A stretch of DNA of 64,000 nt, taken from the IMG/VR virus record IMGVR_UViG_3300027777_000022. One strand, written 5' to 3'. The position numbers and the translations under genes were made by a program. Source of the stretch: a virus. Lineage: Duplodnaviria > Heunggongvirae > Uroviricota > Caudoviricetes. Below the pieces are notes generated by a model, which saw nothing but the letters and a program-made list of their open reading frames with translations, had not been told where the DNA came from and ran no database searches. Below are positions 14,427 to 22,661 of this stretch, in pieces. The stretch's first letter is position 1. The number at the start of each line of letters is the position of its first letter.

Positions 14427-14645
14427 TTAACCTCCAAAGTATGCAATGATTGTGTCCAGGGCAGCAATCAGTTGAGCGTTGTTGACCACGTCGTCAGGAT
14501 GTAGCCAATGGCCAGTGGGATTGGCATCTGACTTGGGATTCTTTTTCCATTGTGCTAGTTCTTTTTTGAGATACGCACGTTGTTCTTTGAGAACTGCCAA
14601 AGCAATGCTGTCTGCAATTTCGCCATCCAATTCAATTTTTCTCAT
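14427..14645 (-). CDS. hypothetical protein
   Basis: 72 aa, coupled by ATGA overlap. Confidence 0.7.
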   Translation of the reverse strand: MRKIELDGEIADSIALAVLKEQRAYLKKELAQWKKNPKSDANPTGHWLHPDDVVNNAQLIAALDTIIAYFGG

Positions 14646-14878
14646 TCTTCAACTCCAAAATGTTTTCCTATCCGCTTAGAACAATCATCTGCCCAAGCAC
14701 TATATAATCCATCGTGATGTGTTCCTCTGTCAGCACAGACTTTAACACATTCCCGCACAATTAACTCGGCGAACTTTTTCAGTTCGGGATATCCAACCCA
14801 ATCATCGGCATCTACACATCCGAGTTTGTCAACAGTTATTCCAGCCTGTTCAGCAAGTTCTTGGATTCGTTCGTTCAT
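14642..14878 (-). CDS. MNERI...FGVEE family small protein
   Basis: MNERIQELA...KFAELIVREC...KHFGVEE; paralogue of 14997..15263. Confidence 0.75.
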   Translation of the reverse strand: MNERIQELAEQAGITVDKLGCVDADDWVGYPELKKFAELIVRECVKVCADRGTHHDGLYSAWADDCSKRIGKHFGVEE

Positions 14879-15000
14879 TCTTCAACTCCGAAATCTTTTT
14901 TAGCCTGTTCCCATACTTTACGGGGATTCATAACACACCAAGCACCAATGACAAACGGTGCTATAAGAATATACACAAGTTTTTTATACCATGGAATCAT
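14875..15000 (-). CDS. 41-aa membrane micro-protein ending FGVEE
   Basis: Hand translation MIPWYKKLVYILIAPFVIGAWCVMNPRKVWEQAKKDFGVEE; ATGA overlaps on both sides. Confidence 0.65.
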   Translation of the reverse strand: MIPWYKKLVYILIAPFVIGAWCVMNPRKVWEQAKKDFGVEE

Positions 15001-15263
15001 TCTTCAATTCCAAAATGTTGTTTAATCGTCTCAGTAGCCTCATAGATACCATTGACAATACCGTCCTCGTATGCCTCAAGATAAGAATCAGTTGATTGAC
15101 ATTGTGATTCAATGTTCTTGGCGTGTGCTTCACTAACTTGAATACATTCTCGCACAATCAACTGGGCGAACTTTTCCATATCAAATCCCATCATTATGAA
15201 TATGCATTGGCTAATTTCATCGTAGCCAAAGACCTTGGCTAGTGTTTTAATTCGTTCGTTCAT
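14997..15263 (-). CDS. MNERI...FGIEE family small protein
   Basis: MNERIKTLA...KFAQLIVREC...QHFGIEE. Confidence 0.75.
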   Translation of the reverse strand: MNERIKTLAKVFGYDEISQCIFIMMGFDMEKFAQLIVRECIQVSEAHAKNIESQCQSTDSYLEAYEDGIVNGIYEATETIKQHFGIEE

Positions 15264-15487
15264 TTGGGTTCATCCAGTGGGTGCATCACACCAGGCGATC
15301 GCTGGGTATAAAATTTTTCATCAGGCACTGCAATCACCATGACTTCATCCATGGTATTGCAATATGGGTCCAGTGGATTGGCATGTTTGATTATAGCGCA
15401 TTGTGTTTCTTGCCCTTGCTCAAATCGATCCAGCTTGCTCAGCAGGGTCAGGAGATTGCGTCGAGATAGATAAATTCGTTCGTTCAT
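15260..15487 (-). CDS. hypothetical protein starting MNERI
   Basis: Start at ATG 15487 (ATGAACGAACGAAT), ATGA overlap with the upstream ORF. Confidence 0.7.
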   Translation of the reverse strand: MNERIYLSRRNLLTLLSKLDRFEQGQETQCAIIKHANPLDPYCNTMDEVMVIAVPDEKFYTQRSPGVMHPLDEPK

Positions 15488-15654
15488 TTTGTTTTCAGAC
15501 AACGATGCCTGTCCTGTATGTTCATGGAGCGTACAGCTTCCTCGCAAAGGGCAACTGACTCAAATTGTGATAGGGAACGCCAATCGTATGCTTTGGCTTG
15601 GTAATGTCTATCACCACCCATAGCAACCACGGTCCAGATGAATAGTGTAATCAT
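15484..15654 (-). CDS. 56-aa hypothetical protein
   Basis: Hand translation MITLFIWTVVAMGGDRHYQAKAYDWRSLSQFESVALCEEAVRSMNIQDRHRCLKTK. Confidence 0.6.
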   Translation of the reverse strand: MITLFIWTVVAMGGDRHYQAKAYDWRSLSQFESVALCEEAVRSMNIQDRHRCLKTK

Positions 15655-15806
15655 TCTTCTGCACCTTTTTTCACATGTTTAGCACGACGACGATACTGCA
15701 CTCGACTCTGCTCCACACGGTGACGGAATGGAGTGTCGCGTGAGTACAGTTCCACAGCACGACGGCGCTGTCGAGGTAGTTCAATCACAAAACTTATGGG
15801 TCGCAT
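15651..15806 (-). CDS. 51-aa basic protein resembling alternative ribosome-rescue factor ArfA
   Basis: MRPISFVIELPRQRRRAVELYSRDTPFRHRVEQSRVQYRRRAKHVKKGAEE; PFRxRVE...YxRxxKH pattern; GGAGA SD; first gene after a sigma70 promoter. Confidence 0.5.
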   Translation of the reverse strand: MRPISFVIELPRQRRRAVELYSRDTPFRHRVEQSRVQYRRRAKHVKKGAEE

Positions 15807-15822
15807 CACAATCTCCGTAAAA

Positions 15823-16803: not shown

Positions 16804-18009
16804 ATGACAAAAAAATACATTGTTGGTTTAAGACACTATAACGCCTATTTTTTAGTAGGAGAACGTGAACATCTCAATTGGTTTACGGATGCTGACTACA
16901 CCGATGACCTGGAAAAATTCAAAGCCGACCCAAGACCAAAAATACTCATGATAGATTGTTTTTATCCCGGATCGGACACTCTTGGACTCCAAGGTGATTA
17001 CAGTTGGGTAGATTTAGTAATTGCTGTGACCAGTGAGTGTGCAACCGGCGGTACTCTCCGAGATACCTATTGTGATATAAAAACTGCACTTAATAATCAA
17101 AATATCATATTTGTTGTAGGAGCAAAAACAGTCAATCCGCCAGGGCCTGGACAAGTTGACCCAACCCGCGATTATAGTCCATTGTTGTGCTGGATCAATC
17201 ACGTGTATGATTGCAATGATTATACTCCGTCATTGCGTCCTGCACAAAAACCTTATCAATTTGATTGTTTGCTAGGACAAAATAGACCCCATCGACTATA
17301 TCTTTTTTACAAACTCATTGAAGATAACTTACTTGACAAAAATCTGGTGTCTATGTGGAGACACGGAAAACATGAATATTATAATTTTACCAAAGCAGAA
17401 CTTGATCAACAGTTCAATGATATATTTAAATCAGACCCAATCATTGGTGATTTGGTACAAAAACACGGAATAATTAATTTCTATCGATCGCCGGGACTAG
17501 ATGAATTGGAATTGCCTGATCTCATTTTGCCAAAAGATGATCCAATCAATTATACACCTGCCACTCCTACCAGCAGATATTGTAAGGCAAGACCCGAGGT
17601 GGTTCTAGACATGGGCATGGACATTCCTGTAAAAATATTTGACGCCAGCTGGTACAGCATTGTGGCAGAAACATTGTACGAAACTGTGTTTATTACTGAA
17701 AAAATTGGAAAACGTTTGATGACCAAACGTATATTTGTATTGTTTGCAGGTCAAGGATGTTTGAAATATTTGCGATCTCAAGGATTCCAAACTTTTGACG
17801 GTATCATTGACGAAAGTTATGATTCGGAGCCCGATCACCGTCGGCGTTTTGATATGGCTTGGGAACAGGTAAAATTATTGAACACCCTGGACCCTGTTGA
17901 AGTTTATCAACGTGCTGATTCAATCCTGGAACACAATTACAATTTATTTCCCACAATGAGAAATGAACATCTAAAGATAAGAGATTTTATTGCCCAATGG
18001 TTACCATGA
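16804..18009 (+). CDS. putative glycosyltransferase-like protein (paralogue 3)
   Basis: Start MTKKYIVG, 4 nt after TAAGTA; CLLGQNRPHR; SIVAET...FITEK...LRSQGFQTF...DESYD. Confidence 0.55.
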   Translation: MTKKYIVGLRHYNAYFLVGEREHLNWFTDADYTDDLEKFKADPRPKILMIDCFYPGSDTLGLQGDYSWVDLVIAVTSECATGGTLRDTYCDIKTALNNQNIIFVVGAKTVNPPGPGQVDPTRDYSPLLCWINHVYDCNDYTPSLRPAQKPYQFDCLLGQNRPHRLYLFYKLIEDNLLDKNLVSMWRHGKHEYYNFTKAELDQQFNDIFKSDPIIGDLVQKHGIINFYRSPGLDELELPDLILPKDDPINYTPATPTSRYCKARPEVVLDMGMDIPVKIFDASWYSIVAETLYETVFITEKIGKRLMTKRIFVLFAGQGCLKYLRSQGFQTFDGIIDESYDSEPDHRRRFDMAWEQVKLLNTLDPVEVYQRADSILEHNYNLFPTMRNEHLKIRDFIAQWLP

Positions 18010-18034
18010 TAAATATTTTATAGGAGACCACAAC

Positions 18035-18550
18035 ATGTTGAAGAAAATTATTGACTTTTTTACTGGTAAAAAGCCTGCACCCGCAGAGCCAGTGGACGCT
18101 TGGCCGCCAACAGCCACAGCGCCATACCAGATTCCTGAACCTGCTGCTACAACACCAATTCCGAATATTCCGTCCGTTGCTGTGCCAATTCCATACAGAT
18201 TTCAACCACCGGCAGCAGAAACAACAAACACGCCGCCTGTGGCTGTGCTGATCTCACCCGAACCTGCTGCGACACCACCAATCTCATTGACTCTGGCCAA
18301 CGAGCCGCCAAAGTGTGGTTGCGGACGTAGCTCAACAGGATTCTGTGTTGGACTGCATAAACTTTCACCAGAAGCCTGGGCAGCTAAACAAGCAACCATC
18401 AACCCTGCTGCTGTTGAAATTGCAACAGAATCTGCTCAACCAGAAAAGAAAAACCGCACATTTACTAGAAAATCAGCAGAACCAAAAGCAGCCAAGAAAC
18501 CTGCTGCAATCAAAGCACCTGCCAACCCTCGAGCCAAAAAGTCCCAGTAA
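18035..18550 (+). CDS. Pro/Ala-rich protein with CDGSH-like Fe-S motif and basic tail
   Basis: AGGAG SD; KCGCGRSSTGFCVGLH; internal PEPAATTPI/PEPAATPPI repeat; histone-H1-like KAAKKPAA tail. Confidence 0.7.
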   Translation: MLKKIIDFFTGKKPAPAEPVDAWPPTATAPYQIPEPAATTPIPNIPSVAVPIPYRFQPPAAETTNTPPVAVLISPEPAATPPISLTLANEPPKCGCGRSSTGFCVGLHKLSPEAWAAKQATINPAAVEIATESAQPEKKNRTFTRKSAEPKAAKKPAAIKAPANPRAKKSQ

Positions 18551-19872: not shown

Positions 19873-20874
19873 TCAGGATCGAGCACTTACCAAATTGTCT
19901 CGGAATATTTCCCATGCATGCTGCCAACTCCAACGTTGACTGCCTGCCAGCACTTGATCTCTGCTCAATTGCAAGCACCCGGACACAGCGTCAGCTAGAC
20001 TTTCATTCACAAATCCAGTCACACCCGGTTCAATCACATCTTCAGGACCTTGACAAGGATACGCTGCTACTGGTGTGCCGCAGGCCATTGCTTCAATCAT
20101 CACAATACCAAATGTTTCCCAACGGCTGGGAAATACAAATACTTCAGCATTGGCATAATATCGAGCCAGCTCTACGCCAATTTTGAATCCAGTGAATGTG
20201 ACATCAGGATATTGTTTCTTGTATGTTTCCAACATGGGTCCGTCGCCTACCATGATCTTTTGGTAACCAGGATAATCCAACTCCAAGAAAGCTTCTAGAT
20301 TTTTTTCTTTACTGACTCGACTCACACACAGCAAATATTTGGCAGGAAAGTTTTCTCTTAGGTCAGGCTTGAAGATCTCACGATCAACACCACGTGTCCA
20401 AGGAACAACTTCTCCGCGAAACCCATGTGCCTTGAGTTCTTGAACCATGCTGTCTGTGGTAGTTAAAACTTTTCCGCTGTGCTTGTGGAACCAACGCACA
20501 AATCTCCAGGTCACGGTCTCAGGAATTCCAAATAACTTTTTCAAACCTTCAGGAAACTTAGTGTGATAAGCGGTATTATGCCTAATACCAGCCAATGACA
20601 AATACCTTCTAGCCCAACAACCAAGAGGACCTTCTGTTGCGATGTGTATATAATCCGGAGCAATCTCCTTGATCTTCTTGCCCATGTGGCGCGGCCAGGC
20701 AATTTTGACTTCGTGATATTTAGGGCAATCAATGTAGCGGAACCACCCGGGATGCAACACCACAACGTTATAGTCATCCAAAACCGCACATGCCTCGATA
20801 TTCTTGTAGGTCGTGACCACGCCATTTATCTGCTCCGGTAAGTTGTCGGTGATGATGAGAATGGTTTTTGTCAT
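19873..20874 (-). CDS. GT4 family glycosyltransferase (Agt/PimA-like lipid glycosyltransferase)
   Basis: ITDN...QINGVVTT, HIATEGPLG, YHTKFPE, RVSKEKN, FPSRWETFGIVMIEAMACGTPV. Confidence 0.9.
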   Translation of the reverse strand: MTKTILIITDNLPEQINGVVTTYKNIEACAVLDDYNVVVLHPGWFRYIDCPKYHEVKIAWPRHMGKKIKEIAPDYIHIATEGPLGCWARRYLSLAGIRHNTAYHTKFPEGLKKLFGIPETVTWRFVRWFHKHSGKVLTTTDSMVQELKAHGFRGEVVPWTRGVDREIFKPDLRENFPAKYLLCVSRVSKEKNLEAFLELDYPGYQKIMVGDGPMLETYKKQYPDVTFTGFKIGVELARYYANAEVFVFPSRWETFGIVMIEAMACGTPVAAYPCQGPEDVIEPGVTGFVNESLADAVSGCLQLSRDQVLAGSQRWSWQHAWEIFRDNLVSARS

Positions 20875-21761
20875 TGAATTTTCAACTTGATAAAATCCAC
20901 AATACGTTGTGCCATGTCCTGGTTGCAATACTTGTCCATACCTTCAAATCCAGGACTTGAATTGGCTTCACATATTTTATAGCCATCTTTGTCAAACAAC
21001 AAATCAACTCCTGCTATCTGTAAACCCAACACATGAGCTGTTTCTCTAGCAAGATAATCCACTTCTTCTGTGATTTCAAATAGTTCTGCTGTGCCACCTT
21101 GACTGATATTGGCACGGAAATCTCCGTCGGCTCCGGTACGTTTCATTGCAACCACTGTTTTTCCACCAATCACCCAAACACGAAGATCTGTACCAGGCTG
21201 GGCATCCACAAACTCTTGAATGATCATGGTTTTCTTTAGAGAAATACTGGATAACAAACTCATCAGCCCTGCAAAATCTTTTTTGTTGTGACATAGATGA
21301 ACAGTTTTTCCTTTGCTGCCACTGGTGGCTTTGACCACACAAGGGAATCCTATTTCTTTTTCAATTAACTCAACATCAACATCTCCGTTGACCAATATGG
21401 TTTTTGGAATAGGTAAATTTTTTTTAACCAGCAATTGACTAGTCAGCAGTTTGTCAGACACTTTGCTGATGCTGTCAGCATCGTTGATCACCGGGATGCC
21501 AAATTTTTCAATTTGTCTCATGACCGAACGTGTGAAATAATTGGTGCCGGCCCCGGTTCTGCTTAGCACCAAATCAGGCAATTCAATTTTTTCACCCCGG
21601 TAACGTATGCTTTTGATAGAACTGCGACTGACAATGATATCAAAATATTTAGGCTCAAGAACTTGCCCCTTCATTCCGTTTTTTTCCAAACACTTCAACA
21701 ACTGCTGATTTTCGTAGGAATTGATTTCTGCTGCATAGTGCAAGATCCAGATGTGTTTCAT
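20871..21761 (-). CDS. RimK-family ATP-grasp ligase
   Basis: DKLLTSQLL, P-K-T, VVKATSGSKG, IQEFV, DLRVWVIGG, FRANISQGG, GVDLL, CEANSSPGF. Confidence 0.9.
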   Translation of the reverse strand: MKHIWILHYAAEINSYENQQLLKCLEKNGMKGQVLEPKYFDIIVSRSSIKSIRYRGEKIELPDLVLSRTGAGTNYFTRSVMRQIEKFGIPVINDADSISKVSDKLLTSQLLVKKNLPIPKTILVNGDVDVELIEKEIGFPCVVKATSGSKGKTVHLCHNKKDFAGLMSLLSSISLKKTMIIQEFVDAQPGTDLRVWVIGGKTVVAMKRTGADGDFRANISQGGTAELFEITEEVDYLARETAHVLGLQIAGVDLLFDKDGYKICEANSSPGFEGMDKYCNQDMAQRIVDFIKLKIQ

Positions 21762-21910
21762 TATTCTGCCATTTCATCTGAGTCTTGTTCAATTTCTTGA
21801 TTGTCAAAATCTTCAGGCAAGTCTGCTTCATCCTCAGGTGTGTCTTTTTCCAGCTTGTTGTCCTGCTGAAAAGCATTTAGCCAATCAAACGGATTAAAAA
21901 TATTATTCAT
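21761..21910 (-). CDS. 49-aa acidic peptide ending in Glu, candidate RimK substrate
   Basis: MNNIFNPFDWLNAFQQDNKLEKDTPEDEADLPEDFDNQEIEQDSDEMAE; AAGGAG SD; TAATG overlap with the ligase start. Confidence 0.7.
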   Translation of the reverse strand: MNNIFNPFDWLNAFQQDNKLEKDTPEDEADLPEDFDNQEIEQDSDEMAE

Positions 21911-22661
21911 CATCTTTCTCCTTTGTCCATGTAATTATCTCCCAGGCACCGTCATGGTGCTCAACCAAGGCAGTACACGATTCAACCCAGTCCCCGTCGT
22001 TCATGTAAACAATACCATTTATTTCTTTTATTTCTGCGTGATGTATGTGTCCACAAATGACGCCATCAAACCCTCTCTTGCGGCAATACCCAACAAGAGT
22101 GAGCTCAAACTTAAACATAAAATCCACGGCTTTTTTAACACGATGCTTGAGATACTGAGACAGACTCCAGTAGCCAAACCCCATGCGATGACGCACCCAA
22201 TTAAATCTAGTGTTAAGAGTGAGGACAATGTCATATGCTTTATCCCCTAAAAAACTCAGCCATGGTGCTAGTCTTGTGATGCCATCAAACATGTCACCGT
22301 GTGTGACCAAGTAATGTTTACCGTCGGCACCTATATGTTCTGTTTGATTGTGTATTTCAATGAGTCCAAAACTGAAACCATATGGAATCATAGGACGCAA
22401 AAATTCGTCATGATTGCCTGCAATATAAATCACACGGGTGCCATGTTTGGCATGGCCGAGAACTCTACGCACCACATTGGTGTGGCTTTGTTTCCACCGC
22501 CATTTGTTTTGTTGGATTCTCCAGGCATCTATTATATCTCCTACCAGATATAACGTATCGCAAGAGTTGTGTTTGAGAAAATTATTAAGTTTGTCTGCCT
22601 GGCAATCTTTAGTACCAAGGTGTACGTCTGACACAAAAATTGATCGGTATGTTTTTTGCAT
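21903..22661 (-). CDS. PlcP/LpxH-like metallophosphoesterase (UDP-2,3-diacylglucosamine hydrolase family)
   Basis: YRSIFVSDVHLG, LYLVGDIIDAW, GNHDE, HGDMFD, CGHIH, YMNDGDWVESCTALVE. Confidence 0.85.
   Translation of the reverse strand: MQKTYRSIFVSDVHLGTKDCQADKLNNFLKHNSCDTLYLVGDIIDAWRIQQNKWRWKQSHTNVVRRVLGHAKHGTRVIYIAGNHDEFLRPMIPYGFSFGLIEIHNQTEHIGADGKHYLVTHGDMFDGITRLAPWLSFLGDKAYDIVLTLNTRFNWVRHRMGFGYWSLSQYLKHRVKKAVDFMFKFELTLVGYCRKRGFDGVICGHIHHAEIKEINGIVYMNDGDWVESCTALVEHHDGAWEIITWTKEKDDE

Follow-up and report, generated by a model that had tools for sequence, protein, structure and literature searches.

Gene block and the acidic micro-ORF

The locus described here lies on the minus strand of a 64,000-nucleotide stretch (the window, meaning the whole stretch of DNA analysed) of the IMG/VR virus record IMGVR_UViG_3300027777_000022, a member of the Caudoviricetes, where four genes follow one another end to end in the order metallophosphoesterase (MPE), acidic micro-open reading frame (micro-ORF), RimK-family ligase and GT4 glycosyltransferase. 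The block is headed by the MPE (21903..22661), a calcineurin-like, LpxH/PlcP-like enzyme (Pfam Metallophos, 2.7e-10) whose NCBIfam matches are of the LpxH type, weak and far under the cut-offs, and whose nearest named relative is a gene of Pelagibacter phage Mosig (50% identical). The micro-ORF (21761..21913) encodes 50 aa when it is started at the ATG at 21913-21911, or 49 aa when started at the second ATG, at 21910-21908, and it stops at the TAA at 21763-21761. It is followed by a 296-aa RimK-family ATP-grasp ligase of the alpha-L-glutamate type (20871..21761) and by the GT4 gene (19873..20874), which matches Pfam Glycos_transf_1 (3.6e-25) and Glyco_transf_4.

The micro-ORF overlaps the genes on both of its sides. 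Its start falls within the last codons of the MPE (stop TAA, 21905-21903), and its Shine-Dalgarno sequence, AAGGAG (21918..21923, read off the sequence), is contained in the MPE 3' end, 4 and 7 nt ahead of the two adjacent ATGs. At the other end the micro-ORF closes with GAA-TAA, base 21761 being common to this stop and to the ATG of the ligase (TAATG), and further downstream an ATGA at 20874-20871 contains both the stop of the ligase and the start of GT4. An earlier description of the locus made from the letters only (the sequence-only reading) had reported a 49-aa ORF with 17 Asp/Glu, a C-terminal Glu, an AAGGAG ribosome site and a TAATG overlap into the ligase, and it was correct in every detail. 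The tight coupling to the ligase that it had pointed out was also borne out when about 100 loci were gathered from IMG/VR and metagenomes and the DNA upstream of each ligase was read: in addition to the TAATG junction of the window, the distance from the peptide stop to the start of the ligase is 0-8 nt at every locus read, whatever lies upstream. The junctions themselves show, at the level of gene layout, that the micro-ORF is translationally coupled to the ligase.

On the comparative evidence, the micro-ORF is a real, conserved coding gene under purifying selection. A search with a profile built from 18 copies of the peptide gathered a family of 80 protein clusters (26-57 aa) from freshwater metagenomes, and a codon-level analysis of 19 loci gave ratios of non-synonymous to synonymous substitution (dN/dS) of 0.15-0.20, head and tail alike. 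The 49-aa product of the window contains nine Asp and eight Glu, two Lys and no Cys (the median in the 73 full-length members of the family is also zero Cys), and the gene occurs once in the 157-kb virus record. Conserved in the family are an aromatic head, N-[IF]-F-N-P-x-x-W, a D-L-P-E-D-F box and an acidic tail, with a variable, Pro/Gln-rich linker between head and box. The AlphaFold2 (AF2) model computed from the family alignment contains one short helix, at residues 8-17, the remainder being predicted as disordered (mean predicted local distance difference test score, 61). None of the 80 clusters contained a Pfam domain and the only name they carried was 'hypothetical protein'; when 50,697 phage records were searched with the peptide by tblastn, no meaningful match was obtained, and the ESM Atlas returned no usable look-alike.

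The C-terminal residue is Glu in all 80 clusters, so that both the gene and the two features that the sequence-only reading had stressed, its aromatic N-terminus and its final Glu, found support in the family. The penultimate position is occupied by Ala, Thr, Ser or Asp and never by Glu. The terminal Glu is written GAG at 17 of the 19 loci and GAA at two, the window having GAA. Loci in which an 8-nt spacer separates the two genes (L010, L032 and L037) have it just as do those in which the peptide stop runs into the ATG of the ligase; therefore, it is not imposed by the overlap.

Three trivial origins of the micro-ORF and of its last residue were considered and rejected. A frameshifted C-terminal extension of the MPE is ruled out, as the peptide has a Shine-Dalgarno sequence and an ATG of its own and the tails of long-form MPEs are unrelated to it. 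An upstream ORF serving merely for coupling is ruled out by the dN/dS of 0.15-0.20. Lastly, the terminal Glu is no by-product of the ribosome site of the ligase or of the overlap, given that the loci with the 8-nt spacer keep it and that both Glu codons are used.

The RimK-family ligase

The ligase belongs to the RimK family, scoring 216.8 bits against NCBIfam TIGR00768 (cut-off 143.4), and has the domains PF08443 (RimK, 1.2e-45) and PF18030 (Rimk_N, the pre-ATP-grasp N-domain, 1.7e-12). It fell below the cut-offs of all four equivalogs compared, namely MptN (170 bits, cut-off 350), LysX (TIGR02144; 155.9, cut-off 275.6), CofF (103, cut-off 300) and the S6--L-glutamate ligase (NF007764; 152.4, cut-off 331), and is thus not assigned to the last of these. 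The solved structures nearest to it are Pseudomonas RimK (7qyr, 3e-46) and E. coli RimK (4iwx/5zct, 3e-38); bacterial RimK proteins score 135-161 bits, and the LysX/ArgX entries of the PDB 74-77 bits (~1e-20). The matches to the solved RimK structures are enough to fix the fold of the window ligase.

In E. coli RimK, R64 and R189 mark two glutamate sites, the first for the incoming Glu and the second for the acceptor's C-terminal residue (PMC10375531). In an alignment to 5zct these arginines correspond to R68 and R194 of the window ligase, and both are invariant in 61 phage homologues, as are N218, D253, E266 and N268; the catalytic residues and both glutamate-site arginines of RimK are thus all present. 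Because it combines RimK-family membership with these arginines and with invariant catalytic residues, the ligase is, judged from its residues, very probably active and built for the C-terminal carboxylate of an acidic chain. The RimK-like ATP-grasp ligase of the sequence-only reading is therefore a true member of the family, above the TIGR00768 cut-off and with its acceptor and donor arginines intact.

Two further observations concern the ligase. The ion pair R98-E144 of E. coli RimK belongs to the 'electrostatic ratchet' model; both residues are Ser in the window ligase (S102 and S147), and Ser is also the commonest residue at these positions among the 61 phage homologues (40 and 49, respectively), with Lys at the S102 position in 15. 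Furthermore, the only close homologue in 185,579 species genomes is found on a 1.5-kb contig (L112, CAIKVR010000038.1) in a bin assigned to an uncultured Bacteroidales metagenome-assembled genome; this contig is probably a mis-binned phage fragment and is a weak host hint at best.

Linkage of the peptide to its neighbours

In the clade whose ligases share at least 89% identity with that of the window, 19 of 20 were found to have the peptide beside them, two further members having no upstream DNA, and it also stands beside the ligases of L056 (77% identical) and L067 (69%), so that three separate ligase lineages, at these three levels of identity, carry it. It is lacking next to the remaining 27 ligases of the same clade and next to all remoter homologues, and on a maximum-likelihood tree of the ligases its presence needs at least five gains or losses. 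Three divergent family members checked by identity look-up (P0349, P0343 and P0347) also have the order MPE, peptide, RimK, the gene downstream being GT4 or an epimerase.

The spacing between the peptide and the MPE is variable, with a 14-nt overlap at one extreme and a gap of about 210 nt at the other. The latter value is that of L108, where the MPE gene, of the long form, ends ~210 nt upstream of the peptide; the string AAGGAGAAAGATGATG stands ahead of the peptide in L108 and L109, as in the window. In L108 a leftover 3' end of a short-form MPE (...ITWTKEKDD, with AAGGAG; L108:3460-3500) sits before the peptide, and this remnant testifies to recombination within the module.

Longer forms of the peptide were also searched for, which brought up L177, a 511-bp contig seen in two samples, which encodes a 109-aa protein (49-378) followed by part of a ligase (378-509). 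The C-terminal ~40 residues of this protein are the C-terminal part of the peptide, attached to an unrelated N-terminal part of ~70 residues; its last 21 residues, the acidic tail, are up to 90% identical to the family and the stretch before them 44-62%. The junction to the crown-type ligase start is the usual overlap. Provided that L177 did not arise as a chimera during assembly, it shows a tail that has remained beside the ligase although the head was exchanged. Residues 1-27 of the L177 protein match the start of a p186-type phage gene (the family of window 17990-18550), a match made through L027, L055 and L073.

The block around the peptide is itself variable. The MPE and GT4 flanks of L022-24 and L075-76 are 80-85% identical to those of the window and the ligase between them only 44-45%. 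In most related loci GT4 follows the ligase; in L018, L057, L060 and L066 it precedes it (MPE-GT4-ligase), and in some it is missing. In lake jumbo phages the MPE/GT4 block thus repeatedly includes a ligase of the RimK type, but one that can be exchanged. The source of the window is itself a lake jumbo phage: the parent IMG/VR record is 157 kb long with a CheckV completeness estimate of 45%, contigs whose ligases are identical or 92% identical to that of the window reach 333-363 kb, and the stretch is contained in 11 sequencing runs, all of them DNA metagenomes and eight labelled as freshwater. The window also contains genes for a ribonucleotide reductase, a DnaB-type helicase and an ATP-dependent DNA ligase.

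Elsewhere in the window (14642-15809, minus strand) several small genes end in FG(V/I)EE before the stop, an end that is always written TTYGGAGTTGAAGAATGA and that supplies the gene after it with a GGAG ribosome site and an overlapping ATG. The same string occurs one to five times per record in five related phage records (G000-G003 and G005) and not at all in a reversed control. These ends may be coupling cassettes rather than targets of the ligase, for which they are formally candidate acceptors.

Candidate roles of the peptide

We tentatively favour the explanation that the peptide serves the adjacent RimK-family ligase as an accessory acceptor and that its C-terminal Glu is extended, which, going by the conserved residues of both partners, could well be the case. 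According to this, the aromatic N-terminal helix would dock the peptide on the ligase and the acidic tail would rest on the basic belt of the enzyme, so that the carboxylate of the terminal Glu could be activated as an acyl phosphate and then extended. Alpha-linked glutamates, which RimK adds to ribosomal protein S6, would most likely form the extension, and a polyanionic peptide would thereby arise during infection. In favour of this explanation, the only feature of the tail that never varies is its free C-terminal Glu, which is exactly what RimK-family enzymes use, and the shape predicted by AF2, a short helix and then a disordered acidic tail, would suit such an acceptor.

Among the closest known systems is the C-terminal polyglutamylation of S6 (RpsF) by RimK in E. 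coli and Pseudomonas. The window ligase is of the same family and has the same architecture of pre-ATP-grasp and ATP-grasp domains, with the catalytic residues and both glutamate-site arginines, and the candidate acceptor, like that of RimK, has a disordered acidic tail ending in Glu. Unlike RimK, the window ligase stays below the cut-off of the S6-ligase equivalog (152 vs 331 bits), its candidate acceptor is a 50-aa phage peptide instead of a ribosomal protein, with a tail that ends in a small residue and Glu and not in Glu-Glu, the phage is without RimA/RimB partners, and the ligase gene is located between a phosphoesterase and a glycosyltransferase.

Several observations weigh against an acceptor role. 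The ligase nearest to that of the window, in L030, is without the peptide and has a long-form MPE in its place; in the group of ligases 84-86% identical, no peptide is found upstream and the MPE frame runs into the ligase start. Upstream of L047/L072, L011 and most of the 73-83% identity groups there is no peptide, and the same is true of the 45%-identical ligases of L022-24 and L075-76, which occupy the same MPE-GT4 slot as in the window, and of the RimK genes of four T4-like cyanophage genera (S-RIM12, S-RIM8, S-RIM32 and S-CAM8). A profile search of five peptide-less virus records, 11-72% complete, did not find a relocated peptide. Moreover, no ligase column separates the peptide-bearing from the peptide-less lineages except for one Ile/Val position. 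An MPE gene lies upstream of the homologous peptide at every locus with enough flank, the head-swapped L177 apart, and because the MPE is always adjacent too, synteny alone cannot tell a partner of the ligase from a partner of the MPE. Finally, the tails of the family end in a small residue or Asp followed by Glu, in contrast to the Glu-Glu of the C-terminus of E. coli S6.

The gaps downstream of the ligase in peptide-less phages contained no peptide, the flanks of the cyanophage RimK genes, upstream and downstream, contained no consistent small partner gene, and 20 more distant ATP-grasp loci (L071-L103) had no acidic upstream ORF; the net charge of the ligase is the same with and without the peptide. 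The sequence-only reading had regarded the peptide as the 'dedicated' substrate of the ligase and had looked to an acidic micro-ORF ending in Glu consistently upstream of phage RimK homologues. This part of it is not supported: absence of the peptide beside homologous ligases, which that reading had itself named as refuting, is what most lineages show, and no ligase residue co-varies with its presence. Many sister phages keep the ligase without the peptide, and therefore the ligase works without it; the role left for the peptide is at most that of an accessory substrate or of a modulator. Furthermore, as ligases indistinguishable from that of the window are kept where there is no peptide, the enzyme must have another, older substrate, which may be host S6 or free glutamate, the peptide being an add-on that would use the same specificity.

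A more specific proposal, which we put forward with less assurance than the acceptor role itself, is that the peptide acts as a phage scaffold, its head docking on the ligase, which would build a glutamate chain, or load another amino acid, on the terminal Glu. The product could act as a strong polyanion in infection, for example as a mimic of nucleic acid or of the S6 tail, and the tail could be a portable tag. The L177 chimera hints that the acidic tail is portable onto another head.

Small ORFs of other kinds were noticed at related loci. In L068 a 37-aa acidic ORF (2004-2117) with the C-terminus ...TEAE extends into the start of a ligase that is 67% identical, and the gene upstream of it is not an MPE. 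It was considered as a distant family member and rejected, its score with the family hidden Markov model being below zero; it was treated as non-homologous, and is either convergent or diverged beyond detection. In L078 (1191-1364), L079 and L080 (2806-2991), a Cys-rich ORF of 57-61 aa with several CxxC-like pairs stands 10-20 nt ahead of a 43%-identical RimK homologue and after a peroxiredoxin-like gene. Additionally, a conserved 57-aa ORF with a hydrophobic N-terminus lies between ligase and GT4 in L046 (2850-3023) and L051 (2625-2798), both of peptide-less lineages.

Among the alternatives to an acceptor role, the strongest, though we consider it less likely than the acceptor role, is that the peptide has no connection with the ligase and is a small acidic protein of the phage, either a partner or regulator of the MPE or a free polyanion acting on a host protein, which stands near the ligase through packing and co-inheritance. 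The constant presence of the MPE upstream would be expected in such a case, as would a ligase that is fully conserved without the peptide and has no co-adaptation to it. In addition, overlapping start/stop junctions are the rule across the block, and other small genes of the phage end in Glu-Glu since their tails carry the ribosome site of the next gene. However, the spacing to the ligase is fixed at 0-8 nt whereas that to the MPE extends up to ~210 nt, and in L177 the tail remains with the ligase after the head has been replaced. Moreover, an invariant Glu, written with synonymous codons and present with or without the overlap, fits recognition by a RimK-family enzyme.

It is considerably less probable that the peptide regulates the ligase, either by mimicking the S6 tail on the basic belt, and so acting as a decoy or competitive brake, or as an activator comparable to RimA and RimB, which modulate Pseudomonas RimK. 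The patchy presence of the peptide beside otherwise identical ligases would suit an optional modulator, its acidic tail with a terminal Glu would suit a mimic, and small partner proteins are known to tune RimK activity (PMC7343187, PMC11957791). Against this, the peptide has no similarity to RimA or RimB, five phage records contained no RimB-type protease (PF05618), and a Glu-ended tail that fits the acceptor site would be expected to be ligated itself. No S6 gene was found in the five phage records either.

A carrier like LysW, with an amino acid or amine attached to the terminal Glu, at its alpha or side-chain carboxyl, and then tailored by neighbouring enzymes, is the least probable of these alternatives. 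In the LysW/LysX (ArgX) system the C-terminal Glu of LysW is essential, its tail, which ends in EDWGE, being inserted into the active site of the ligase. The likeness consists of a small acidic, Glu-ended protein placed directly ahead of a ligase of the RimK/LysX family, with a tail (acidic-acidic-x-small-Glu) that resembles the LysW end; an amidinotransferase-like gene, a 2-oxoglutarate-oxygenase-like gene and genes for sugar enzymes, all within 5 kb, could provide tailoring. The arginine equivalent to R173 of LysX is also conserved (PMC10375531). Nevertheless, the ligase is twice as close to RimK as to LysX/ArgX by its scores with solved structures and stays under the LysX cut-off, the peptide has no Cys and hence no zinc-ribbon domain, nor any globular domain in the AF2 model, and the neighbour genes differ between loci. 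Pfam and NCBIfam searches of the neighbours within ~5 kb found no kinase, reductase, aminotransferase or release hydrolase of the LysZ/Y/J/K type. Thus, of the marks of a LysW/LysX system, the ligase type, the zinc-ribbon carrier and the tailoring enzymes are all missing and the Glu-ended tail is present (80/80), and the setting is a phage and not a biosynthetic operon.

Macrocyclisation as in graspetides of the microviridin type, which share with the locus a short precursor beside an ATP-grasp enzyme and for which the aromatic N-terminal helix of the peptide could be a docking leader, is rejected: the ligase is not of the MdnC/MvdC type (TIGR04185, 26.3 bits, cut-off 425), and the conserved feature of the peptide is a free C-terminal Glu rather than Thr, Ser or Lys donors, 14 of the 73 full-length members having none of these three in their last 30 residues and only five having any Lys, which agrees with the poor fit of macrocyclisation noted in the sequence-only reading. 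Finally, pearlins, made by PEARL enzymes, and the tubulin tyrosine-ligase-like (TTLL) glutamylases resemble the proposed acceptor in their working principle only, a ribosomal tail serving as handle for the non-ribosomal addition of amino acids (PMC9303977); their enzyme families, tRNA-dependent LanB-like or TTLL, are unrelated to the ligase.

Cyanophage genomes annotate rimK homologues as S6-modifying enzymes, and phage homologues are routinely labelled 'S6 glutaminyl transferase'; to our knowledge, no substrate has ever been shown for any of them. They have been known since 2008 from marine metagenomes, without a partner peptide (PMC2530865). Among open-access papers and preprints we found no mention of an acidic peptide co-encoded beside a phage rimK, and the peptide family and its phage setting are new. 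The conserved but exchangeable slot of the ligase between a PlcP-like phosphoesterase and GT4 links it to a putative nutrient-stress or lipid module. If the peptide is not modified, it would be one more small acidic phage protein. If it is modified, it would be the first viral acceptor, a virus-encoded substrate, of a RimK-type ligase, and would represent a new family of peptides that are made on the ribosome and lengthened without it, as well as a handle on the role of these widespread phage ligases.

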